64,000 bases of DNA from Veillonellaceae bacterium (GCA_012523975.1 JAAYSF010000038.1:8390-72389), one strand, 5' to 3'; positions 18,327 through 46,151 are shown, counted from the stretch's first letter. The notes: a model not told the origin generated them from the sequence alone. Translations and numbers: made by a program.

Positions 18327-19199
18327 TTACTTGCTGTCTTTTTGATAAAGGTTAACTAACTCGCTAGTCGAAACTTGGACTGACTCTACCATTTGAATAA
18401 TATCCTGCATAGCGCGAGCTTGCTCAGCTGAAATCGAAGCAGATTGGTTAATGCCCTCAATTACTTTTTGAATTGCATCTTGAATTTCTTGCAGAATTTT
18501 ATTGATATTTTCAGTTGCGTCAGCACTGTTTTGGGCCAATTTTTGCATTTCCTGGGCAACAACTGCAAAACCGCGGCCATGCACGCCGGCGCGGGCAGCC
18601 TCAATGGAAGCGTTAAGACTCAAAAGCTTGGTCTGAGTAGCAATGCCCCGGCTCATATCCAGAATCTTTCCGGTGTCTTTCACTTTTCTCACAGCTTCGT
18701 GTGATACTTTTACTACACCGTCAGTGGTTGCCGCCAACTCTTGCGACGAGGCCGAAATTTCTTCTACCGCAGCCGCCGCTTGGTGGACATTGTTCGAAAC
18801 AAGCGCAACCACTTGTTCAACAGCTATTCGTTGATAATCTTCCTTCACCCGGGCCGATACGACGGCTGCACCTACTTGCGTAAGCGGTCTAACAATTTCA
18901 ATAGGACCAGTAATGCCAAATGTACCGATCCGTTCGCCGTCAGCTTCAATCAGGCAGCTGAAACCCTCTTTAACATTAGGGTTTTGCGCGGCCTCCTCCG
19001 GCGTCACTGTATAATCGTCCATAAGTCCCTGAACAATCTTTTGCGCTCCTGCATGCTTAGTGCCAACCCGTACTCCGCCTAAACAGTCGGCAATTACTGT
19101 TCCCGTATCATCACAGATAATCATATTATAACCGGTTTTACCTTTAATAAATTGGACAAGTTCACCTGCAAGCGCGCTGGGAATCTTGTAATTAGCCAT
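18327..19199 (-). CDS. Soluble chemoreceptor-like protein: Diacid_rec (CdaR-type sugar-diacid recognition) N-domain + short MCP signalling domain (copy 1)
   Basis: No TM segment. N-terminal [30 protein letters not shown] ... [13 protein letters not shown] resembles the CdaR N-terminal domain. C-terminal [34 protein letters not shown] is the MCP signature. Confidence 0.75.
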
Positions 19200-19244: not shown

Positions 19245-20117
19245 CTATTTGGATTCTTTCTCAAAAATAGCTACTAAATTGCTTGTCGATGTTTGAACAG
19301 ACTCGACCATCTGAATAATATCCTGCATCGCATGGGCCTGTTCGCTTGAAATAGATGCCGTCTGATGAATGCCTTCAATGACCTTTTGAATTGCCAGTTG
19401 AATTTCATTAAGAATATTATTGATGTTTTCAGTTGCGTCGGCACTGTTTTGCGCAAGTTTCTGCATTTCTTGGGCAACTACAGCAAAGCCCCGGCCGTGT
19501 ATACCGGCGCGGGCGGCCTCAATTGAGGCATTTAAACTCAAAAGTTTCGTTTGGGTCGCAATCCCGCGGCTCATATCAAGAATTTTCTCGGTATCTTTAA
19601 CTTTCTTGACAGAATCCTCCGAAAGCTTAACTACACTATCGGTAGTGGACGCTAATTCTTCGGAGGACGCTGAAATTTCTTCAACAGCAGCTGCCGCTTG
19701 GTGCACATTGGTAGAAACATTAGAAACCACTTGCTCTACAGCCTGCCGTTGATAATCTTCCTTGACTCGGGCCGCAACAACGGCGGCGCCCACTTGGCTG
19801 AGTGGTTTAACAATATCAATCGGACCGCCGATTCCAAATGATCCAATCCGTTCGCCGTCAGCCTCAATCAAACAGTTGTAGCCTTCTTTAACGTTAGGGT
19901 TCTGTGCTTCCTCTTCAGCCGTTACAGCATAATAATCGGTAAGACCCTGGACAATTTTTTGAGCCCCAGCATGCGTAGTACCAACTCGAGCTCCGCCTAC
20001 ACAATCTGCAATTATCGTTCCATTCTCATTGCAGATAATCATGTTGTAACCAGTTTTACCTTTGATAAATTGCACAAGTTCACTTGCAAGCTCAGTGGGA
20101 ATGCTGTAGCTAGCCAT
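19245..20117 (-). CDS. Soluble chemoreceptor-like protein: Diacid_rec + MCP signalling domain (copy 2, tandem paralog)
   Basis: 290 aa, about 85% aa identity to copy 1 and collinear. Same domain order. Confidence 0.75.
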   Translation of the reverse strand: MASYSIPTELASELVQFIKGKTGYNMIICNENGTIIADCVGGARVGTTHAGAQKIVQGLTDYYAVTAEEEAQNPNVKEGYNCLIEADGERIGSFGIGGPIDIVKPLSQVGAAVVAARVKEDYQRQAVEQVVSNVSTNVHQAAAAVEEISASSEELASTTDSVVKLSEDSVKKVKDTEKILDMSRGIATQTKLLSLNASIEAARAGIHGRGFAVVAQEMQKLAQNSADATENINNILNEIQLAIQKVIEGIHQTASISSEQAHAMQDIIQMVESVQTSTSNLVAIFEKESK

Positions 20118-24527: not shown

Positions 24528-24661
24528 CTTTTGCTGAAAATGTAATCATAAAATGTCTAAATTAGAAAACCCGGCCTAGCGCCGAGCTTCAGCGAAAGCG
24601 CAAGCCAGGGGCTTGCGCTTATGTCGCGAGAATTTATAGTTAGAAATTCTGGTAGACTAAA

Positions 24662-24700
24662 AAAAATCGCAGCCAGGTACGGCTGCGATTTTCAGCTTAT
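24662..24700. terminator. Bidirectional terminator between the MurE-like gene (+) and the LarA-like gene (-)
   Basis: aaaaaaaa-atcgcagcc-aggtac-ggctgcgat-tttcagcttatttt: stem flanked by an A-run and a T-run. Confidence 0.6.
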
Positions 24701-25959
24701 TTTACATATGGAATAGTCAGCGGTCCTAGTGGCAGAACAGCTACTCTTGCATTCGGGCCATACTTATCCATGAGCTGTTTCAAAGTATCTTCTATATCTT
24801 CTACATGATTTAGCATAGCTTGTTTAACGGTTTCTTTATCAAGTGACGAATACAAATAGCAATCAGCTTTTAATTGAATCATCGCCTGCTTTTGCGCTTC
24901 CCATTGGTCGAATAACCGATAAGACGGTTCGTTAATCATATCGAGGAGTTCTTGCGGCGTTTTTCTTGCTTTAAGAATATCCGCGTAGTTACCATGGTTC
25001 GGCAAGCCATCTGAACATTCCGAAACTGCAATTATCGCACCGCCCTGCTTGACAATTTCAGCACCGGCGCTCATTCCTTTAACAGTCTGATACAGATTTT
25101 GGTCAAGCGGATAGCCTGAGTTTGTTGTAATGACAATATCAAATGGCTCATCGACTGCATACATAGCATGTTTCTTAACAAATTCACAACCAATGCGATG
25201 AGCTTCAATTACATCGCCAGCAAATACATCGGTAATTTCTTTGTCGCCATTTAAAGTGACATTGAGCATAAACTGCGGCTTGGCCATCAGGCAGTTTTGG
25301 GTAGCAGCATTCTGCAGAATATTCCCGGCGATAGTCCCCCAAGTACTGTTAGGATCACCAATCATTTGCGCATTGTGGAAGTCAAGAATAGTCTCAATAC
25401 TGCATATACCAGGGCAGATGCCTTTGGGGCCGCCTGAGAATCCGGCAAAGAAGTGCGGCTCAATGAAACCGGTTACAATTTTGAAATCACATTCTACGTA
25501 AGTTTTATTTAGGTATACTTTTGAACCATAACTATTAGTGCCTACATAAGACAGCTCGTCCGGATTAAATGCATCGCTTTGAACGATTTTTACGGTATTA
25601 ACTATATCTTCACCTAACATCTGAATTAATTCTTCACGAGTGTTCGCCCGGTGACTGCCTAATCCGTTGATGACGACAAAGTTTTCCCGCGGCACATGAG
25701 AAAGTTCTTCCATAATCCATGGTACCAATTTATGACTCGGAGTAGGACGAGTCAGGTCGGCAATTACAATACCGACTGTGTCGGTCGCCTTGACCATTTC
25801 CTTGAGCGGTCGGGTGCCAAAAGGATTTCGCATTGCCTTGATTACTGCCGCTTTTTCATCAGCCAAACCGTCTAAATGACGAGGCTCGATTACTTCTGCA
25901 TTATCCGGCACATTAACTACAACATGCCCCTTACCATACGCTAACTTAACCTGTTTCAT
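24697..25959 (-). CDS. LarA-family (lactate racemase-like, nickel-pincer cofactor dependent) alpha-hydroxy-acid racemase/epimerase homolog
   Basis: Start set at MKQVKLAYGKGH (SD GAGGTGAT). Collinear with L. plantarum LarA, including LTRPTPSH and GFIEPHFFAGFSGG. Confidence 0.8.
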   Translation of the reverse strand: MKQVKLAYGKGHVVVNVPDNAEVIEPRHLDGLADEKAAVIKAMRNPFGTRPLKEMVKATDTVGIVIADLTRPTPSHKLVPWIMEELSHVPRENFVVINGLGSHRANTREELIQMLGEDIVNTVKIVQSDAFNPDELSYVGTNSYGSKVYLNKTYVECDFKIVTGFIEPHFFAGFSGGPKGICPGICSIETILDFHNAQMIGDPNSTWGTIAGNILQNAATQNCLMAKPQFMLNVTLNGDKEITDVFAGDVIEAHRIGCEFVKKHAMYAVDEPFDIVITTNSGYPLDQNLYQTVKGMSAGAEIVKQGGAIIAVSECSDGLPNHGNYADILKARKTPQELLDMINEPSYRLFDQWEAQKQAMIQLKADCYLYSSLDKETVKQAMLNHVEDIEDTLKQLMDKYGPNARVAVLPLGPLTIPYVK

Positions 25960-26077
25960 GATTATCACCTCTGAAATTTTTCCAAACACGATACTTATTA
26001 TATTATTTTGATTATTAGCGCGAATATTCCTTCCGATTTCCAATTGTGAAAAAAAGACTTTAGTTGTAACTATTTTT

Positions 26078-27109
26078 TTAAGATTGCTTTAATTTACGGT
26101 CTTGTTCTTGATCTCTAATGGTCACCACATACTTCTTAACAAACTTAACTGGGTTATATGAAAGCTTAGACTTACGCAAACCTTCCAGCCCCATGTCTTC
26201 TTCGCGGTTAATATAACGCATTTTAGACCAAGCATGTTTTACAAACTGCTGGTTAATTGCGGGGTATATGCCGCGAATATCAGCATTAGCCTTTTCGACA
26301 TGAATAACTGCAGTATCGGCATTAAGCTGTTCCCCAAAGGTAAACGCTTCGACAGTGCCGTTAATCATGATAACACCGCCGGTAAGGTCTAAGTATTCCT
26401 GGTTGGTAAGCGCTTCAATTATCGCGTTTTTTTCATAATCAATCAGCTCATTTTTAATCGTATCGGTCTTCTTCTCAAACCAATCGGCGGCGGTGGCAAC
26501 ACATTGTCCGACTAACTCAGCAGATAAGGGCAGATAAACAAAGTTGCTGTACACTTTTTTAAAATTATTGAAATGATTCTTTTTACTATGGAACTTGCGG
26601 CCTTTAAGATTTATTAAATCCTGGGCGCTATAAATATAATCATAATTATCCCGATCTTCGTGGAACTTGAAAAACCCTGGTCTGAGTTTTTCAAACTGAA
26701 GGGCAGCTCCGCTCTCTATTCCGCTAATGATAAACGGTAGGTTATTTTGTTTGAAATAATCCTCCCATATCGTAATGGCCTTCCCTAATTCAGCCTCCGG
26801 ACCAAACGGCTGCAGTGCAAATTGTTCCTTGCCCCAAGCTGCTCTTATTAATAAAAAGCCTGCCTCAGTACACCACTCTATGTTAAAGGCATGACGCCAC
26901 ATAAAGAGGTTCGTAAAATTAAAATGCGCATTCTCATAGCGGCGTGCGCGAAAAAAGCTATCAAAAACTGGTTTATCGTCTAATTTAATTGGCTGAAAAT
27001 TAATAATAACCCCTCCTATCGGCGCAAATAACGCACCGTACCATTCTATTATATTACACACAATTCGCAAAAGGTACAGTATAAATACAAAATTCACCAA
27101 TTTCGACAT
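26078..27109 (-). CDS. DUF2156 / LPG-synthase-C-like domain protein (MprF C-terminal-like, GNAT-fold)
   Basis: Family-typical opening FQPIKLDDKPVFDSFFRARRYENAHFNFTNLFMWRHAFNIEW. The 5' end is uncertain: ATG at 27109 lacks an SD, while a strong AGGAGGGG sits internally near 27000. Confidence 0.55.
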   Translation of the reverse strand: MSKLVNFVFILYLLRIVCNIIEWYGALFAPIGGVIINFQPIKLDDKPVFDSFFRARRYENAHFNFTNLFMWRHAFNIEWCTEAGFLLIRAAWGKEQFALQPFGPEAELGKAITIWEDYFKQNNLPFIISGIESGAALQFEKLRPGFFKFHEDRDNYDYIYSAQDLINLKGRKFHSKKNHFNNFKKVYSNFVYLPLSAELVGQCVATAADWFEKKTDTIKNELIDYEKNAIIEALTNQEYLDLTGGVIMINGTVEAFTFGEQLNADTAVIHVEKANADIRGIYPAINQQFVKHAWSKMRYINREEDMGLEGLRKSKLSYNPVKFVKKYVVTIRDQEQDRKLKQS

Positions 27110-27145
27110 TACGATTATAATTTGGCAGGACTTTCCTAATCTTTA

Positions 27146-27153
27146 TTGTATAA
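27146..27153 (+). promoter_or_regulatory. Extended -10 element (TGTATAAT) upstream of the PocR-kinase operon
   Basis: TGn-TATAAT 60 nt upstream of the TTG start. -35 weak. Confidence 0.35.
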
Positions 27154-27213
27154 TTATATTCAGAATAGTTATGTAGTTCGGAATTGTTGACAACATTCAT
27201 AGGAGGTCGCAAA

Positions 27214-28656
27214 TTGGACAAATTCGATGGTCTAGAGAATATTACCTTGCTTGATCTTATAGCCATTGAAGAGCTACAGGAAATCCAGGATGTCTATGCC
27301 GAAGCACTGGGGATAGCGACGATAATCACCGATCTGGACGGACATCCCATAACCCAGCCGAGCAACTTTTCTAAAGTCTGCAACATGGTACGGGCTACAG
27401 AAAAAGGCTTAGAAAACTGTATGTATTCCGGCAAAGTTATGGGAGCGAAAGCTCATCAATTACTTGTGCCAACCTATCAGAAGTGCCTTAGCTGCGGCTT
27501 CATTGATGCTAGCGCACCTATCACTGTAGACAACAAGCATATCGCCAATTGGGTAGTTGGGCAAATAAACTCAGGTGAAGTCGACGCCGATCATCTTCGG
27601 GCTTACGCTCTGGAAATCGGGGCAGACCCTGACGGATTGGCCAACGCGCTGGACCAAACCCGCGATATGCCGCTGCCGCGTTTCGAAAAGATTCTTCGTT
27701 TATTGTGGCTGCTAGCCCAAAAAATTTCTGCCATGGCCTACAATAATCTGCTTTTATCGCGTGATAACTTGATGCTTAGCCAAGCTGAACGTGAAATTAA
27801 GCAGCTCAATCAGGCTCTTGAAAGTCGTGTATTGGAGTTTGAAGCCGCTAACTCAGATTTACAGCAAACGCTTGCCAAACTCCAAGAAACTCAGGAGCAT
27901 CTTATTCAGCAGGAAAAATTGGCCTCATTAGGCAGTCTGGTTGCCGGCATTGCTCATGAGATAAATACTCCTATCGGTTCAGGTGTAACGGCAGCCTCAT
28001 ATTTGGAACAGGAAACCAATGCCATTGTTAAACAGTTCAAAGCCAATGCATTAAGACGATCCGAACTGGATAGCTATCTTGCTGCTTCTAATGAAGCGAT
28101 AAAAATTATTCTCATAAACCTGAGGAGAGCCTCAGAGCTAATATCCAGTTTTAAAAAAGTAGCGATAGACCGCTCCAGTGATGCCAAACAATTCTTCAAT
28201 ATCAAGAAATACATTGGGGCAGTAATTTTAAGTTTACGACCCCAGCTAAAAAAAGCCAACCACCATATTATTGTCAAATGCGATGATTATATCAACTTAA
28301 ACAGCTATCCTGGTGACTTTTCCCATATTATCACAAACCTAATTATAAATACACTTGTTCACGCTTATCCGTCAGGAAATCAGGGAACCATCACAATTGA
28401 TGTAAGCCACCAAAATGATAAGCTAACACTTATTTATTCAGATGACGGCATCGGCATTCCCGAAAACCACTTACCTAAAATTTTTGAGCCTTTTTTTACA
28501 ACTCGTCGAGGCAATGGCGGTACCGGATTAGGGCTTAATATTATTTACAATATTGTCACCCAAAACCTTAAAGGATCAATAAGCTGCACTAGCCGGCCAA
28601 ATCAAGGAACAAGCTTTACTATAACAATTCCAACCGAAAATGGAGGTACCTTATGA
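27214..28656 (+). CDS. Cytoplasmic sensor histidine kinase with N-terminal PocR sensory domain
   Basis: TTG start 7 nt after AGGAGG. PocR-like domain (conserved Cys pattern KVCNMV ... ENCMYSG ... CLSCGFID), coiled-coil, HisKA (LVAGIAHEINTPIG) and HATPase_c. Confidence 0.85.
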   Translation: MDKFDGLENITLLDLIAIEELQEIQDVYAEALGIATIITDLDGHPITQPSNFSKVCNMVRATEKGLENCMYSGKVMGAKAHQLLVPTYQKCLSCGFIDASAPITVDNKHIANWVVGQINSGEVDADHLRAYALEIGADPDGLANALDQTRDMPLPRFEKILRLLWLLAQKISAMAYNNLLLSRDNLMLSQAEREIKQLNQALESRVLEFEAANSDLQQTLAKLQETQEHLIQQEKLASLGSLVAGIAHEINTPIGSGVTAASYLEQETNAIVKQFKANALRRSELDSYLAASNEAIKIILINLRRASELISSFKKVAIDRSSDAKQFFNIKKYIGAVILSLRPQLKKANHHIIVKCDDYINLNSYPGDFSHIITNLIINTLVHAYPSGNQGTITIDVSHQNDKLTLIYSDDGIGIPENHLPKIFEPFFTTRRGNGGTGLGLNIIYNIVTQNLKGSISCTSRPNQGTSFTITIPTENGGTL

Positions 28657-30224
28657 ACAACCTGGAGGAGGCAGTCGAAGCCGACCAGTCTAATGACTTA
28701 CTTCAATGGGCTGAAGAAACAGAAAGTTTCCAGCCGCAAACAGATAGTTTCTGGAAGATTATGATTATTGATGATGACGAAGCTGTCCATAGTGTTACCA
28801 AATTAGCCCTTCGTCATTTTGTCTTTGAGGGAAAGAAGCTTGAATTTATCAGCGGTTACTCGGCAGCTCAAGCGCGCGATCTTATTGTGAAACATCCCGA
28901 TACTGCCATTCTTCTGCTTGATGTCGTAATGGAAGACGACGATGCTGGTTTAAAAGTGGCGCGCTATATTCGCGAAGAATTAAATAACTCGTTTGTAAGG
29001 ATTATACTTCGGACTGGCCAAGCAGGTCAGGCTCCTGAGGAAAAAGTAATTCTCGAGTATGATATTAATGATTATAAAGAAAAAACCGAACTTACCGCCC
29101 GTAAGCTTTTCACAACGGTAATAGCCGCCCTGCGGGCCTACCGGGATATAATAACAATTGATGCTAACCGCCAGGGCTTGGAAAAAATTATCGAAGCCTC
29201 GGCATCAATCTTTAAAGTTCAATCAATGACCAAATTTGTATCAGGAGTTCTTAGACAACTTGTTTCTATTCTTGGCCTGAATAAGAATTCTTTATACTGC
29301 CAAACTTCCGGTTTTGCTGCAACGAATACCGGCGGCGATTTTCGAATTATGGCTGCAACCGGTGATTTTGAAAAACATATCAACGAAAAAATCGAAACTG
29401 TTTTGCCTCAGGATATTTTAAACGAACTCAATACCGTTTTTACCGCTAAAGAAAGCATGCATTTCGGCAATCGGTTTTTGGGCTATTACCATAGTAATTC
29501 CGGCTCAGAAAGCATTATATATCTTGAAGGACTGCAAACCTTAAACAAAATTCAGAAAGACCTTGTAGTTGTCTTCTTTAATAACGTAAGTACCGCCTTT
29601 GATAACCTTTATCTAAATGAGCAACTGGCTAACGACCAGATGGAAATGCTCTTTACTTTGGGAGAAATGGCCGAAAATCGCTCGCATGAAACCGGCCTCC
29701 ATATAAAAAGAGTAGCTCGTTATTCCCGGCTGTTTGCGCTTAAATACGGTTTAAACGAAGATGAAGCTTCCCGGCTACAGTTAGCTTCATCAATGCATGA
29801 TATCGGTAAACTGGCTATCGAGGATAAAATCCTCAAAAAGCCGGGTCAGCTTACGCTTGAAGAATTTGCTGTAATCAAACGCCATTCGCTCATTGGCTAC
29901 CAAATTCTTAGCAGTTCCAACCGGCCGCTTTTAAAAACGGCAGCCATCATAGCCCTTCAACATCATGAAAAATTTGACGGCACCGGGTATCCTAATAATC
30001 TTTGCGGTGAAAATATCCATATTTATGGGCGAATAACTGCTATTGCCGATGTTTTAGACGCCCTCAGCAGCGACCGGGTTTACCGTCCTGCCTGGCAGAT
30101 TGATAAAGTATTACTATATATTAAAGAACAAAGCGGTAAACATTTTGATCCGCAATTGGTTGATATACTATTTAAAAACCTGGATGAATTCCTTGCAATT
30201 ATGAATGAAACAAGCGAGGACTAA
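28653..30224 (+). CDS. Response regulator with REC domain + middle (GAF-like) region + HD-GYP c-di-GMP phosphodiesterase domain
   Basis: ATGA overlap with the kinase gene. REC (MIIDDDEAV ... LLLDVVME). HD-GYP (HDIGKLAI ... HHEKFDGTGYPNNL). Confidence 0.85.
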   Translation: MNNLEEAVEADQSNDLLQWAEETESFQPQTDSFWKIMIIDDDEAVHSVTKLALRHFVFEGKKLEFISGYSAAQARDLIVKHPDTAILLLDVVMEDDDAGLKVARYIREELNNSFVRIILRTGQAGQAPEEKVILEYDINDYKEKTELTARKLFTTVIAALRAYRDIITIDANRQGLEKIIEASASIFKVQSMTKFVSGVLRQLVSILGLNKNSLYCQTSGFAATNTGGDFRIMAATGDFEKHINEKIETVLPQDILNELNTVFTAKESMHFGNRFLGYYHSNSGSESIIYLEGLQTLNKIQKDLVVVFFNNVSTAFDNLYLNEQLANDQMEMLFTLGEMAENRSHETGLHIKRVARYSRLFALKYGLNEDEASRLQLASSMHDIGKLAIEDKILKKPGQLTLEEFAVIKRHSLIGYQILSSSNRPLLKTAAIIALQHHEKFDGTGYPNNLCGENIHIYGRITAIADVLDALSSDRVYRPAWQIDKVLLYIKEQSGKHFDPQLVDILFKNLDEFLAIMNETSED

Positions 30225-30811: not shown

Positions 30812-30895
30812 CAAAAAAAGAAAGAAAAAGACTACCGTTTTGTGTTAATAGATTTAAAATAACACAGAATGGTAGTCTTTCTTTTTTACTTTTTT

Positions 30896-31393
30896 TTAAG
30901 CTTTAATATTTGCTTTGCGTTTCTTGGCACAGCTTGGACATCTTGTGCCTTTATATAAGAAGTTTTTTACGAACACGTTCCAGACCTTACCGCAGGTAAC
31001 ATGTTTAATATTTATCCGGCGGGAAAGAGGACAGTATTCACCGGCTATCTCATATTCGCCATTGGTTAATTTAGGAATTCTTTCTCTTAACTGTTCTGTA
31101 TCTAAAGGGATAGCGCCCCGGCCGAAGCATTTAGGACAACGATTACCTTTAACGAGAAAATTATGAGGAAATACTGGCCACTCGTGGCCACAGGTAACAT
31201 GTTTCATATTAACGCGATTATTAATACCACGATATGTTCCTGTTACGATATAATCGGTCCCAACAGCTTCCAAGACCTTAGCCTCGAATGACTGCTGAGT
31301 GTCTTTAAGAGCGCGAAAGTGACGATAATTTTTGCGGTGTTTTAAGCGACGAATCGCGAGTTCTTCTCTTTCGAGATCATCAATGATTGACAT
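30896..31393 (-). CDS. Protein made of 2 tandem copies of a ~55-aa His/Cys zinc-ribbon-like module (short paralog)
   Basis: Modules ...YIVTGTYRGINNRVNMKHVTCGHEWPVFPHNFLVKGNRCPKC and ...YEIAGEYCPLSRRINIKHVTCGKVWNVFVKNFLYKGTRCPSC. SD AAGGAAGG. Loosely resembles DUF4379/PF14311-type zinc-ribbon repeats (from memory). Confidence 0.55.
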   Translation of the reverse strand: MSIIDDLEREELAIRRLKHRKNYRHFRALKDTQQSFEAKVLEAVGTDYIVTGTYRGINNRVNMKHVTCGHEWPVFPHNFLVKGNRCPKCFGRGAIPLDTEQLRERIPKLTNGEYEIAGEYCPLSRRINIKHVTCGKVWNVFVKNFLYKGTRCPSCAKKRKANIKA

Positions 31394-31751: not shown

Positions 31752-32414
31752 TTATTTCGTGGGGGATTTTTTATTTATTGCGGTATTTATTTCCGCTTTT
31801 TCTTTCTTCTTATTTTCAGCGCAGATTGGGCACACCGGATTACTACTAACTAGTGTATTGCCCTTTACTAAGTATTGATGATCGCAGTTATTATCGAGAA
31901 CAACAATATCATCGGAGTAACCGTGACTTAATTCATTGCTAATTATAGTAAAACGATCACTGTGTTTATTTTTGACTCTAATCTTCAAGTCTTCAAGAGT
32001 TGCTTTCCCGCGATTGCATCGAGGACACCTATTGCGTTTTTTACCGACAAAAAATGTTGGCCGTATCATCCATTCTCTTCCACATATGTTGTGCCTCATT
32101 AAAATAGGGGTGTCCCCATCTACGTATTCTCCAAGAACTGAATACTCATTGCCGACTTGATTCAATACTTTCTCTTTAAAAATATCTGCTTCCAAAACTT
32201 TATTTCTTGAATTACATTTAGGACATCTATTTCCGATATTGACAAAGTTAGAAGCTATGACTTCATATTCGTGACCACAAGTGTTGTGTCGCATCAGAAT
32301 TTTTTTATAAGATTTAACATAATCACCAAGGACAGTATATTCGTTACCGACTAACTCATAAACTCTTTTTTTAAAAGATTCTGTCGTATATTTATTTGGT
32401 CTTACTTTTGCCAT
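31752..32414 (-). CDS. Protein made of 3 tandem copies of the same His/Cys zinc-ribbon-like module (long paralog)
   Basis: Modules FKKRVYELVGNEYTVLGDYV ... RHNTCGHEYEVIASNFVNIGNRCPKCNS, FKEKVLNQVGNEYSVLGEYV ... RHNICGREWMIRPTFFVGKKRNRCPRCNR, and a third copy ... CDHQY ... CPICAE. Confidence 0.55.
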   Translation of the reverse strand: MAKVRPNKYTTESFKKRVYELVGNEYTVLGDYVKSYKKILMRHNTCGHEYEVIASNFVNIGNRCPKCNSRNKVLEADIFKEKVLNQVGNEYSVLGEYVDGDTPILMRHNICGREWMIRPTFFVGKKRNRCPRCNRGKATLEDLKIRVKNKHSDRFTIISNELSHGYSDDIVVLDNNCDHQYLVKGNTLVSSNPVCPICAENKKKEKAEINTAINKKSPTK

Positions 32415-33940: not shown

Positions 33941-34085
33941 GCATTGTCACGATCTGGCCAAGCCAATGAACTTGTAATACTAAGTGGCAGCCAAAGGTAG
34001 TAGATAGATCTATTTTTAATAAGTAGATTTAAAACATGCAAACATCAGCGATTGTGGTATAATAATAATTAAGGAGTTGATCTTG

Positions 34086-34400
34086 ATGGAAGAATTATTA
34101 AAAAAAATCATTCAACGTCTTGATAAGATGGAAGCACGGTTTGACGAAGTTAACACACGATTTGACAAAGTTAACACACGATTTGACGAAATCGAAGAGA
34201 ATATGGCGACAAGGGCAGACATTGTTCGCCTTGAGAATAAGATGGACATGCATTTTGGTGCTTTGTATGATGCTAGAGAGGTTCAAGCAGATGTGAACGA
34301 TCAAGTTCGTGATAGCCTGAATAGAATAGAAAAAAGATTAGATCGCGTTTCATTGCGGACCAATCATAATAGTGCAATAGTTGAGAAAATAGCAAAATAA
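34086..34400 (+). CDS. Coiled-coil hypothetical protein (104 aa) containing a duplicated heptad-like peptide
   Basis: MEELLKKIIQRLDKMEARFDEVNTRFDKVNTRFDEIEENMATRADIVRLENKMDMHF ... AAGGAG 9 nt upstream. Terminator follows. Confidence 0.5.
   Translation: MEELLKKIIQRLDKMEARFDEVNTRFDKVNTRFDEIEENMATRADIVRLENKMDMHFGALYDAREVQADVNDQVRDSLNRIEKRLDRVSLRTNHNSAIVEKIAK
34149..34190 (+). repeat. Tandem 21-nt direct repeat inside the coiled-coil gene (gttaacacacgatttgacaaa / gttaacacacgatttgacgaa)
   Basis: Seen directly in the sequence. Encodes VNTRFDK-VNTRFDE. Confidence 0.8.
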
Positions 34401-41085: not shown

Positions 41086-42180
41086 ATGCAAAAGATGTCT
41101 TTAGCCAACCTTCGGCCGGGAATGGTTGTTGGACGGCATATTTATGGCAGCGATGGTCGCCTGCTACTAAACACTGGAACGGTTTTGACTGAAGCCTTTA
41201 TTAACCGGTTAAAAAAAAATGGCTTAGGCTCAATTTATATAAAAAACAGCTACCTTGATGATATCGAAATACCTGAGATTATCCAAGAAGAGACAAGAAA
41301 AAAAGCAGTCTCGCTTATGCAAAAATCCTTTGATGACCTCAAGTCAACTGCCTCCATCAAGATTGAGCAGTTTGAACAAGCTGCCAAAAGTATCGTTGAT
41401 GAGGTTATAACAAATCGCCAGGCGCTGGTACACCTTACTGATATTAGAACATACGATAACTATACTTTTGGACACTCAGTGAATGTTTGCATTCTTTCAA
41501 CAGTAACCGGGCTGCAGTTAGGCTACAGCAAGTCAAAGCTGCAAACTCTAGCGCTAGGTGCGCTCCTGCATGATGTCGGCAAAGCCTTCGTGCCACTTGA
41601 AATTCTAAATAAGCCTAGCCATCTAACCGATGATGAGATGGCGGTAATGCGCAAACATACCGAAACAGGTTTTAATGTTTTGCGCAAACAAATTGAGCAA
41701 ATTCCGCTCCTTGCCGCCCATGTAGCTTTTCAGCATCACGAGAAGCAAAATGGCAGCGGCTATCCCCGTGGTCTAGACGGCGATCACATTCATGAATTTG
41801 CCAAAATCGTCTCAATCGCAGACGTTTATGACGCTGTAACAGCTGACCGCCCCTACCGCAGCTGCATGCCGGCCCATGATGCCTATGAGCTTGTCGTTGC
41901 CCTGTCGGATATCCATTTTGACCCTGATATTTTGACAACCTTCCTCGGTAATATTGCTCTATATCCGATTGGCAGTTTTATTGCCCTTAATTCCGGTGAA
42001 ATTGGGGTTGTCACCAATGTTATCTCGAAACTTCCCACCCGGCCGATTGTTAAGGTCATAACCGATACTGATTGTAAATTGCTTGCCCAGCCTTACGAGT
42101 TAGATCTCACCGCCGAACTGACGATTGTCGTTGATTCGGTTTTGTCAGAAAAAGATCTCGTAGATTTGAAACTGGTATAA
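41086..42180 (+). CDS. HD-GYP domain c-di-GMP phosphodiesterase with N-terminal uncharacterised domain
   Basis: HDVGKAFVP ... HHEKQNGSGYPRGL (HD plus GYP motifs). Confidence 0.85.
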   Translation: MQKMSLANLRPGMVVGRHIYGSDGRLLLNTGTVLTEAFINRLKKNGLGSIYIKNSYLDDIEIPEIIQEETRKKAVSLMQKSFDDLKSTASIKIEQFEQAAKSIVDEVITNRQALVHLTDIRTYDNYTFGHSVNVCILSTVTGLQLGYSKSKLQTLALGALLHDVGKAFVPLEILNKPSHLTDDEMAVMRKHTETGFNVLRKQIEQIPLLAAHVAFQHHEKQNGSGYPRGLDGDHIHEFAKIVSIADVYDAVTADRPYRSCMPAHDAYELVVALSDIHFDPDILTTFLGNIALYPIGSFIALNSGEIGVVTNVISKLPTRPIVKVITDTDCKLLAQPYELDLTAELTIVVDSVLSEKDLVDLKLV

Positions 42181-44525: not shown

Positions 44526-46151
44526 TTAGGGAATCAAGCCTGGGAATACGAACTGATAGAGGTATACTAACACGCCAAGGAAGAGTGCATACGGGATTGC
44601 AAACTTGATAGTCTTGCGCATGATTACACCTTCCTTACCCATCAGACCAACAGCGGTAGCCGCGATAACGATACTTTGCGGGGAAATCATTTTACCTGCC
44701 GAAGCGCCGGCGTTGCCAGCTGAAGCCATCAGAACATCAGATAAGCCAAGACCTTGAGCAGTCAGTGTTTGCAGGTTGCCGAACAGCGCATTGGCTGAAG
44801 TGTTACTGCCGGTGACAAATACCCCAAGGGCACCAATCGCCGGGCTGAGGAACGGCATGACTTCCTTATCAATTGCCGCTACAAGGCTTTTCGACATTAC
44901 AGCAATCATCGACGGCTGCGCCGCCCCACTAGCAGTTGCCCAAACGACAGCTTTAGATTTAAGATCAATGATCGGCAGAGTCAGGTTCATAACCTCAGAG
45001 ATCGACAGAATACAGGCTACAGTTATGAAGGCTGGCACCATTTGTTTGAAAGTGATACCAATTTGTTTGGTAAAATCGCTGAACCGGATACCCATGAATT
45101 GGAATGCAATCAGACCTGCGATAATTGTAATGGTACCAGGGCTTTGCAGCCAAGTGAAGGCATAAACCTTATTCGGGTTGTAGATTTGCGCCTTAATCAG
45201 CATCCACTCGGTACCGGCAACTTTTCCGGCAAAGATTGGTTTAGTTCCGGGCAGGTTAACTGCGATAACCAGAAGGGCTAACAGGATATATGGAAGCCAG
45301 GATAAGCCCAGCTCTTTAAAATTGAGGGTATGGGCACTGCCGGTTGCAGCAGCACTTTCACCAGGGAAGAGCCAAACTTCAGTTTCTTTACGGGTATAGA
45401 GATAGAAGCCAAGTACGCCTAAGCAAACGAGCGCACCTAAAATACTGGCAAGGGTTGCACCAAGCAGGTTAGCAACCAGGAACTCTACGATTGAAAAGCT
45501 CAAACCGGTAATAAGGATAGCCGGCATAATACCTTTCATGCCTTTAACGCCTGACATTACAAAGACAGTGGCGAAAGTCATGATGAAGGCCATTATCGGC
45601 ATTAAACGACCGGTCATTTGCGACAGTTTCATGAAGTCAAGCTGAGTTGTTAGCGCCAGTGTATCAGTCGGAATAGCCAGTGAACCAAACGGAACCGGTC
45701 CGGTATTGGCCACCAAACATACCAACGCTGCCATCAGCGGATCATAACCAAGGCCTACTAAGATACTGGCCGGAATTGCAACAGGCGATCCGAAACCGCA
45801 AATACCTTCGAGGAAAGCGCTGAATCCGTAGCCTATTAACAGAGCTTGCGCCCGACGGTCAATGGTAATCGAGGACATTGCATTCTGCATCTTGTCCATC
45901 CAGCCGGTAGCTTTAAGAACATTGTAAACAATAATTGCCCCAAAAGGGATATACATTATCGGGAATATACCGGTAATTGCACCTTGCAGCGCTGCTAACA
46001 ACGTTACCTGCGCGGGGAATCCAAAATAAAAAATAGCAATTAAAACTGTTACTAACCATGCAACCGGTGCTACTTTCACCGCTGGTTTCATTAAAACAGG
46101 AAGACCAATCAAAAATACGATTAAGGGTATTGCAGCAAATAAAGCATCCAA
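44526..46151 (-). CDS. lctP: L-lactate permease (LctP family)
   Basis: TTG start 6 nt after GGAGGGG. 541 aa, about 14 TM. LFAAIPLIVFLIGLPVLMK ... typical of LctP. Confidence 0.88.
   Translation of the reverse strand: MDALFAAIPLIVFLIGLPVLMKPAVKVAPVAWLVTVLIAIFYFGFPAQVTLLAALQGAITGIFPIMYIPFGAIIVYNVLKATGWMDKMQNAMSSITIDRRAQALLIGYGFSAFLEGICGFGSPVAIPASILVGLGYDPLMAALVCLVANTGPVPFGSLAIPTDTLALTTQLDFMKLSQMTGRLMPIMAFIMTFATVFVMSGVKGMKGIMPAILITGLSFSIVEFLVANLLGATLASILGALVCLGVLGFYLYTRKETEVWLFPGESAAATGSAHTLNFKELGLSWLPYILLALLVIAVNLPGTKPIFAGKVAGTEWMLIKAQIYNPNKVYAFTWLQSPGTITIIAGLIAFQFMGIRFSDFTKQIGITFKQMVPAFITVACILSISEVMNLTLPIIDLKSKAVVWATASGAAQPSMIAVMSKSLVAAIDKEVMPFLSPAIGALGVFVTGSNTSANALFGNLQTLTAQGLGLSDVLMASAGNAGASAGKMISPQSIVIAATAVGLMGKEGVIMRKTIKFAIPYALFLGVLVYLYQFVFPGLIP

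Follow-up and report, generated by a model that had tools for sequence, protein, structure and literature searches.

In L. plantarum the racemase LarA is encoded in a cluster with larBCE, larR and an aquaglyceroporin gene, and the LarA structures from this bacterium (LarA1, PDB 5HUQ) and from T. thermosaccharolyticum (PDB 2YJG) are built of two domains. PocR of Salmonella is a 1,2-propanediol-responsive regulator, in which the PocR domain is fused to an AraC-type DNA-binding region. Stand-alone tandem-GNAT proteins, such as BT_3689 (PDB 2HQY) and HPB8_1270 of H. pylori, are soluble, have about 300 amino acids (aa) and lack the membrane domain of MprF. Response regulators with the domain order REC-DUF3369-HD-GYP make up the RpfY family, of which VCA0210 of V. 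cholerae hydrolyses cyclic di-GMP (c-di-GMP) and cyclic GMP-AMP (cGAMP), while DVU0722 of D. vulgaris requires activation (bioRxiv 10.1101/2021.11.05.467447). Here we describe a 64-kb stretch of DNA from Veillonellaceae bacterium (GCA_012523975.1 JAAYSF010000038.1:8390-72389), referred to below in its full length as the window, with positions counted from its first letter. At 24697-30224 it carries, side by side, genes for a LarA-family racemase, a DUF2156 protein, a PocR-domain sensor histidine kinase and an RpfY-type regulator, all four of which are ordinary members of described families.

The initial annotation had presented these genes as a single acquired functional unit of lower guanine-plus-cytosine (GC) content, organized as an operon. 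We favour a different reading (at a probability of about 0.72), namely that three units, each functioning independently, lie side by side in a lineage-specific arrangement that reflects shared ancestry. Four intact-looking open reading frames (ORFs) are indeed present within 24697-30224, and our domain searches agree with the domains originally given to them. The minus strand carries larA, predicted to encode a lactate (short-chain 2-hydroxy acid) racemase of 420 aa that depends on nickel-pincer nucleotide (NPN) as its cofactor (24697-25959; Lar_N and LarA_C domains), and the gene of the DUF2156 protein (LPG_synthase_C fold), a putative soluble tandem-GNAT acyltransferase (26078-27109; Pfam PF09924, E 1.3e-54). 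The plus strand carries the genes of a cytoplasmic PocR-domain sensor histidine kinase of 480 aa (27214-28656; PocR E 1.4e-42, HATPase_c) and of a response regulator of 523 aa, REC-DUF3369(GAF-like)-HD-GYP (28653-30224; DUF3369 E 1.6e-51, HD_5 E 2.9e-30). The last two overlap by 4 bp and are a translationally coupled pair. The four genes thus form two divergent pairs, and since they lie on two strands they constitute two divergent transcription units rather than one operon.

The separate histories of the three units are visible in the relatives. One genome per species was scanned with a DUF2156 alignment as the query, which yielded 80 loci (L008-L087); the window proteins were run by tblastn on the fetched loci, and overall about 110 related loci were compared. 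The DUF2156 gene is present at all 80 genome loci (Sporomusa, Pectinatus, Selenomonas, Veillonella, Megasphaera, Acidaminococcus and others), with a LarA gene nearby in five and the two-component system in one. Across all major families of Negativicutes (L008-L087) the protein retains 41-54% identity to the window copy, and in Pectinatus and others its gene lies directly beside DUF1934-argS. When the seven copies of the window's contig are counted with the 80 genome loci, purL is seen upstream in 24/87 and argS downstream in 16/87, and where these flanks are visible the order is purL, DUF2156, a variable segment, a murE-like gene with vanW and spoIID, DUF1934 and argS. Judged from this gene order, we regard DUF2156 as a positionally fixed core gene of the Negativicutes between purL and argS and not as cargo. 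The flanks in the window are likewise housekeeping and sporulation genes, including mfd, spoVT, glpX, pyrG, argS, spoIID, purL, the gene of pyruvate:ferredoxin oxidoreductase (PFOR), spoVAD and pst. The window's contig also recurs in several metagenomes.

The two-component system has a much narrower distribution. A protein search with the kinase returned about 21 full-length orthologue clusters (43-100% identity), all from Negativicutes, and the contigs of these orthologues also carry DUF2156 orthologues; the system is confined to a small Dendrosporobacter-like subclade. At three loci, including that of the cultured Dendrosporobacter sp. (L088; the others are L089 and L008), purL is followed by a gene for an SNF-family transporter and by the regulator and kinase genes, which diverge from DUF2156 and larA; the L008 contig ends inside the regulator gene, and the transporter and purL side is not visible there. 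This order recurs at the more closely related L091, L092, L093 and L096, where, in addition, larA and the murE-like gene are separated by a HAMP-HD-GYP gene that is absent from the window (24528-24696) and from L095. This additional gene (L091 1697-3079, L092 6072-7436, L093 5948-7315, L096 11339-12697) is convergent with larA. A shorter HD-GYP gene occupies the equivalent position in Anaerospora (L020, 14484-15374), and HD-GYP genes are very abundant around the locus in these genomes.

Each of the components also occurs without the others. At L090 the regulator and kinase genes (kinase 43% identical) diverge from DUF2156 and no LarA is encoded; at L089 an ABC-F gene is inserted between DUF2156 and the kinase gene; at L011, L023, L097-L100 and L102 DUF2156 and LarA are found without the two-component system; and the LarA type of the window occurs in unrelated contexts at L101, L103, L104, L108 and L111. 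In Anaerospora the slot between purL and DUF2156 is filled instead by genes for a PAS-SpoIIE protein, a FliK-like protein and a PHP protein. The full cluster was found only inside the conserved synteny from purL to argS. The synonymous divergence (dS) of all four genes is comparable to that of purL, with ratios of nonsynonymous to synonymous divergence (dN/dS) of 0.02-0.10. Synteny with housekeeping flanks together with dS values of this order therefore indicates vertical descent and speaks against recent transfer.

These data bear directly on the idea that the four genes are one horizontally acquired module, in which the PocR kinase would sense a 2-hydroxy acid that LarA interconverts and would relay this through the HD-GYP regulator to c-di-GMP. 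Adjacency of all four is seen in the window and at eight related loci (L008, L088, L089, L091-L093, L095 and L096), the GC of each is slightly below the mean of the window, and lctP, as originally reported, is present in the same window (44526-46151). Nevertheless, we consider such a module very unlikely: its genes are on two strands, they share synteny with housekeeping flanks and have dS comparable to that of purL, the components lie apart at L090, L011, L023, L097-L104 and L111, and DUF2156 stands at the same spot in genomes without LarA and the two-component system. The regulator lacks a DNA-binding output, and nothing ties PocR to hydroxy acids, with no solved or characterised relative found.

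Composition offers this view little help. The GC content is 0.440 for the window and 0.412 for 24697-30224, and the 40 genes outside this region and the island described below average 0.455 +/- 0.030. The four genes have consistently lowish values (GC 0.40-0.43, z -0.9 to -1.9; GC at third codon positions, GC3, z -1.0 to -1.8), yet they overlap with such core genes as speD (0.406), DUF1934 (0.413) and a LysR gene. The lower GC described for the module is thus a weak signal: the values do not leave the span seen in core genes, and the insert with truly low GC is next door (30.2-35.3 kb). The true compositional outlier is the adjoining segment 30225-35328, with a GC content of 0.368, individual ORFs down to 0.31, and GC3 as low as 0.21 (z -3.4 to -7.2).

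No other protein of the neighbourhood is conserved as well as LarA, which matches Lar_N and LarA_C in Pfam (E 1.1e-65 and 2.5e-31) and scores 531 bits against the NCBIfam equivalog Ni_dep_LarA (NF033504; cut-off 460), the next-best family being malate racemase with 370 bits, below its cut-off of 500. The protein is 37% identical to L. plantarum LarA1, shares its two-domain fold families, and is about equidistant (phmmer 244-253 bits) from lactate racemase, the malate racemase Mar2 and a broad-spectrum LarA. In alignments to LarA1 and 2YJG the catalytic H108 and H174, the phosphate contact R75, the K184 tether and the nickel ligand H200 are all present, as are the substrate contacts Q295 and K298 (LarA1 numbering); the NPN-binding and catalytic signatures noted initially are therefore kept, every residue being intact by alignment. 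Among LarA homologs the LAR group is marked by F, F, W and E/Q at LarA1 positions 175, 176, 358 and 359 (PMC11770544), and the window protein carries this signature (F175, F176, W358, E359).

Unlike its L. plantarum counterpart, the LarA of the window is not clustered with larBCE, larR or an aquaglyceroporin gene. No larB, larC or larE was found in the window and 10 kb beyond each of its ends (84 kb; tblastn and Pfam tables), in agreement with the initial annotation. With LarB, LarC1, LarC2 and LarE from the plasmid-borne lar operon of L. plantarum as tblastn queries, there was no significant match in the window and 93 related loci, nor in 19 metagenome LarA loci; the one match, a 56-residue LarE fragment at L025 (E 9e-5), was taken as chance. 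The term "orphan" is accordingly apt as far as the neighbourhood is concerned, but it should not suggest an anomaly. Separation from larBCE is normal for this LarA type, because none of these genes stands beside any related locus (within 10 kb, 0/19 metagenome loci and no genome loci).

On the same grounds we think it very unlikely that LarA is an inactive orphan, decaying or moonlighting in a genome devoid of the NPN pathway. This explanation would fit the lack of larB, larC and larE in the window, 10 kb beyond each end and in every related locus fetched, but it has to contend with the intact catalytic, tether, nickel-ligand and specificity residues, with a separation from larBCE that is the rule for the type, and with the fact that Negativicutes typically carry several LarA homologs (two or more per genome on average; PMC11770544). 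It is also opposed by the conservation of the protein: the identities to L091, L092 and L093 are 94, 93 and 88% for LarA and 87, 79 and 75% for PurL, and the dN/dS of larA is 0.02-0.03 (dS 1.12 vs 0.84 for purL). As read from these substitution rates, the pattern of larA is that of vertical inheritance under strong constraint, with neither recent transfer nor decay. Purifying selection on larA argues indirectly for an available NPN cofactor, and LarA is probably active despite the absence of larBCE from the 84 kb. Its context at two further loci fits a role in organic-acid catabolism: at L103 this LarA type is encoded beside a PrpR-type sigma-54 activator and a KdgT-family permease, and at L111 near Etf genes. 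In anaerobic lactate users LarA lets L-lactate be consumed through D-specific dehydrogenases (PMC8914356); the window encodes, in addition to lctP, PFOR and a phosphotransacylase.

Two LarA types, 38% identical to each other, were found at the slot that follows DUF2156. The type of 420 aa (37% identical to LarA1) is present in the window, at L091-L093, L095-L100 and L102 and in Pelosinus (L023), and in Anaerospora it is encoded three genes away from DUF2156. At four loci (L008, L011, L088 and L089) the same slot contains a type of 424 aa that is 57% identical to LarA1. Both exceed the equivalog cut-off and have the full residue signature of lactate racemases. The exchange of LarA types at one slot resembles the replacement of a paralogue in situ by recombination in the conserved flanks.

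That the DUF2156 gene is functional is shown by its dN/dS of 0.035. A profile of the family matches BT_3689 with E 2.7e-86 over positions 3-299 of 300, and the window protein is, like BT_3689 and HPB8_1270, a stand-alone tandem-GNAT protein. With the C-terminal domain of MprF it has the Pfam family PF09924 in common; however, MprF possesses in addition an N-terminal flippase/membrane domain, whereas PF09924 is the only family found in the window protein, which is much closer to the soluble 2HQY group. An MprF-type aminoacyl-lipid synthase was considered and rejected: there is no fused membrane flippase domain, the homologs have about 300 aa, and the short form of the protein contains no transmembrane segment. 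The 2HQY structure contains acetyl-CoA, and HPB8_1270 contributes to lysine acetylation of RNase J in H. pylori (PMC10700544). Because of this ligand and this acetylation phenotype, analogy favours an acetyl/acyl-CoA transferase over an aminoacyl-tRNA transferase as the identity of the DUF2156 protein.

It could be proposed that DUF2156 and LarA form a functional pair, in which the acyltransferase would take, e.g., an acyl donor or acceptor that derives from lactate (for D-lactyl transfer to a protein, a lipid or a cell-wall precursor) and LarA would supply the correct isomer. The two genes are co-directional and adjacent at no fewer than 16 loci of several genera (Pelosinus, Dendrosporobacter, the clade of the window and uncultured relatives), exactly that slot is taken by two different LarA types, no terminator separates the genes in the window, and cell-wall genes (murE-like, vanW and spoIID) adjoin. 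A pairing of this kind nonetheless seems to us quite improbable, given that DUF2156 stands without an adjacent LarA at 75/80 genome loci (including Sporomusa, Pectinatus, Selenomonas, Veillonella and Megasphaera), that the same LarA type is found without DUF2156 in other contexts, and that three unrelated genes lie between the two in Anaerospora. The spacers of 80-350 bp and the terminator at L093 point to separate transcription, and the solved homolog binds acetyl-CoA. As for a link with the cell wall through murE-like, vanW and spoIID, it was rejected, as these genes have the same position in genomes without LarA and are transcribed convergently or divergently; in relatives the HAMP-HD-GYP gene separates them from larA.

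The kinase and the regulator both have intact motifs. In the kinase, a PocR domain at the N terminus is followed by a coiled-coil linker, an H-box (AHEINTP) and the ATPase boxes, which can be read in the translation as NLIINTLVHA, DDGIGIP and GTGLGL (N, G1 and G2). HATPase_c is matched with E 1.7e-25, the Pfam HisKA model gave no score, and the DHp and CA domains match the ZraS, VicK and KinB structures. No transmembrane segment was found in the kinase (maximum Kyte-Doolittle value, KD(19), 1.11), and because it lacks a hydrophobic segment, we infer that it is a cytoplasmic sensor of a small molecule made in or entering the cell. Its PocR domain gives a full-domain Pfam match and, in contrast to that of Salmonella PocR, is joined to a histidine kinase; the surroundings of the kinase gene in the window contain no pdu, cob or eut genes. 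A search by sequence found no solved PocR domain, and no characterised PocR kinase that might point to a ligand was found. The proposed sensing of 2-hydroxy acids is not supported, as nothing ties PocR to these compounds.

The receiver domain of the regulator is diverged (26.3 bits vs the Pfam cut-off of 30.2), yet its residues are complete: acidic DDDE at 40-43, D90, T121 and the K of DYKEK. The HD-GYP domain matches that of PmGH, an active phosphodiesterase (PDB 4MCW), with E 1.2e-57, and the motifs MHDIGK and HHEKFDGTGYP are intact. The domain order is that of VCA0210 and DVU0722, but the regulator differs from these RpfY-type proteins in its diverged REC and in its partner, a soluble PocR kinase from the approximately 21 clusters of one Negativicutes subclade. 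Signalling from the kinase into c-di-GMP hydrolysis is plausible from the sequences, and would run from ligand to autophosphorylation, phosphotransfer and c-di-GMP hydrolysis. This part of the initial annotation, that the kinase signals to the HD-GYP regulator, is supported by the coupled genes, the intact H-box, the receiver Asp and the HD-GYP motifs; the added link to a 2-hydroxy acid is not. A domain search found no DNA-binding domain in the regulator. Its output is enzymatic, and therefore its adjacency to larA and DUF2156 implies no control of these genes.

Three observations weigh against our preferred reading. Firstly, larBCE were not found in the 84 kb around larA. Secondly, no terminator lies between DUF2156 and larA in this genome, and read-through co-transcription is possible. 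Thirdly, 9/10 loci with the two-component system keep LarA beside DUF2156, despite the swap between types that are only 38% identical. Such retention might be a hint that selection keeps these genes side by side. There is accordingly a slim chance that the kinase and regulator genes, with the divergent DUF2156 and larA, are a real lactate-to-c-di-GMP module, kept through about 40-60% protein divergence and the replacement of LarA. If this were true, the PocR kinase would sense the status of lactate or short 2-hydroxy acids, or else an acyl modification derived from lactate and made by DUF2156, and c-di-GMP would fall. However, both LarA types are also found at this slot without the two-component system (L011 and L023), so recombination through conserved flanks explains the pattern without invoking function, and accounts for the retention equally well.

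Under our preferred reading, that of three units juxtaposed by descent, the following picture may be drawn. The host would be an uncultured spore-forming member of the Negativicutes, represented by a Sporomusales-like metagenome-assembled genome from anaerobic digesters. Its larA, with its own promoter region and a strong terminator, would encode an active NPN-dependent racemase of lactate or very short 2-hydroxy acids, which probably allows the use of both lactate isomers, the NPN cofactor presumably being made by larBCE located elsewhere in the genome. The core gene DUF2156 would provide a soluble tandem-GNAT acyltransferase, for which an acyl-CoA donor is the likelier. The cytoplasmic PocR kinase would sense a small intracellular ligand and phosphorylate its coupled partner, whose HD-GYP domain would then hydrolyse c-di-GMP, an output that is enzymatic and global and not a transcriptional control of the neighbours. 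The two-component system probably entered the variable slot that separates purL from DUF2156 in an ancestor of the subclade and has been inherited since, while larA would occupy the variable slot on the other side of DUF2156.

The transcription signals of the region were also inspected. A bidirectional intrinsic terminator at 24662-24693 (both strands; 14-bp stem that includes 6 GC pairs, then a T-run) is strong and common to the convergent larA and murE-like ligase genes. The larA ORF was called at 24697-26043 (minus strand), and its likely start is the ATG at 25959, preceded by the ribosome-binding site (RBS) GAGGTG, which gives 420 aa and agrees with the public gene call. The AT-rich upstream spacer of 118 bp (25960-26077, minus strand) contains a promoter-like site at 26050-26023, and no terminator was found within it. 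A sequence block 5' of the larA ATG is kept in L091-L093, and at L093 a GC-rich terminator lies between DUF2156 and larA.

The DUF2156 ORF has 343 aa as called, while all homologs have about 300 aa. A GGAGGGG RBS is situated directly 5' of the conserved INFQ motif, and the true start is probably near 27007, giving a protein of about 309 aa. The roughly 35 extra N-terminal residues (27007-27109) are hydrophobic and unconserved, and promoter-like hexamers lie within them. At the conserved start of the family this RBS is followed by GTT ATT ATT AAT, which suggests that the start was mis-called and that an ATT initiation codon is possible. The divergent promoter region of the DUF2156 and kinase genes (27110-27213, both strands) reaches to about 27008 if DUF2156 starts downstream, and contains promoter-like sites on each strand (plus 27093-27121 and 27122-27149; minus 27106-27078 and 27070-27043). 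The kinase ORF was called at 27184-28656 (plus strand), with the TTG at 27214 (RBS GGAGG; 480 aa) as its likely start. A block reading TGGCAGGA...TATTGT, located 5' of the kinase gene, is conserved across six genomes.

Two further candidate signals were discarded. In relatives, a GCAGGAWT block is conserved 5' of larA as well as of the kinase gene, but it also occurs 5' of unrelated genes, has no exact match at either window site and is not enriched in the window (4 observed vs 1.75 expected; 13/100 shuffles reach 4); it does not qualify as a shared operator and is best read as a probable generic promoter element. An Rfam search (E<=1, 22-36 kb) detected no RNA family at the larA leader or in the divergent region, and a riboswitch or other RNA element at these places was rejected, the search having returned only spurious miRNA-like matches on a terminator hairpin at 30.81-30.90 kb.

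The low-GC segment 30225-35328, between the regulator gene and purL, is a strain-specific phage-like remnant. None of its ORFs has a homolog in any related locus, and in the relatives L088, L089, L091-L093, L095 and L096 its slot contains the SNF-family transporter gene. Two ORFs (30896-31393 and 31752-32414) are made up of repeated treble-clef zinc ribbons; their matches are to phage HNH endonucleases (phrog_559 and phrog_681), in the parts that are not catalytic. The ORF at 34077-34400 encodes an XhlA-like coiled-coil protein, in which a 21-bp tandem duplication (34135-34176, 90% identical) gives rise to a repeated heptad-like motif, TRFDKVN/TRFDEIE. At the boundaries of the island (30.2-35.3 kb) neither tRNA genes nor convincing flanking direct repeats were found. 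A long hairpin at 30813-30894, whose arms of 35 nt are 80% complementary and enclose a loop of 12 nt, lies between convergent ORFs; it reached 36 bits against Rfam mir-3688 (gathering score 84) and most likely represents a bidirectional terminator rather than an RNA gene.

Elsewhere in the window, the second HD-GYP gene mentioned in the initial annotation was located at 41086-42180, with intact HD, HHE and GYP motifs. Its product of 364 aa has no receiver domain, and the gene is resident rather than acquired, because it is syntenic in L089 and L092 (3' of a speD-like gene). Tandem genes at 18327-19199 and 19245-20117 encode soluble chemoreceptor-like proteins of 290 aa that each join a Diacid_rec domain (CdaR-type, for the recognition of sugar diacids) to an MCP signalling domain, and this pair is conserved in relatives.

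To conclude, neither operon nor island is an appropriate annotation for the apparent module. As it stands, the grouping is of little significance, being explained by shared ancestry, and the truly foreign DNA is the segment at 30.2-35.3 kb, next to the four genes. The layout is shared by the cultured Dendrosporobacter sp. (GCA_036763085.1, L088), which could serve for testing the ligand of the PocR kinase. It is modestly worth knowing that the DUF2156 protein, a putative soluble acyltransferase, is universally conserved and positionally fixed in the Negativicutes. Finally, an "orphan" LarA such as the one described here should not be presumed inactive.

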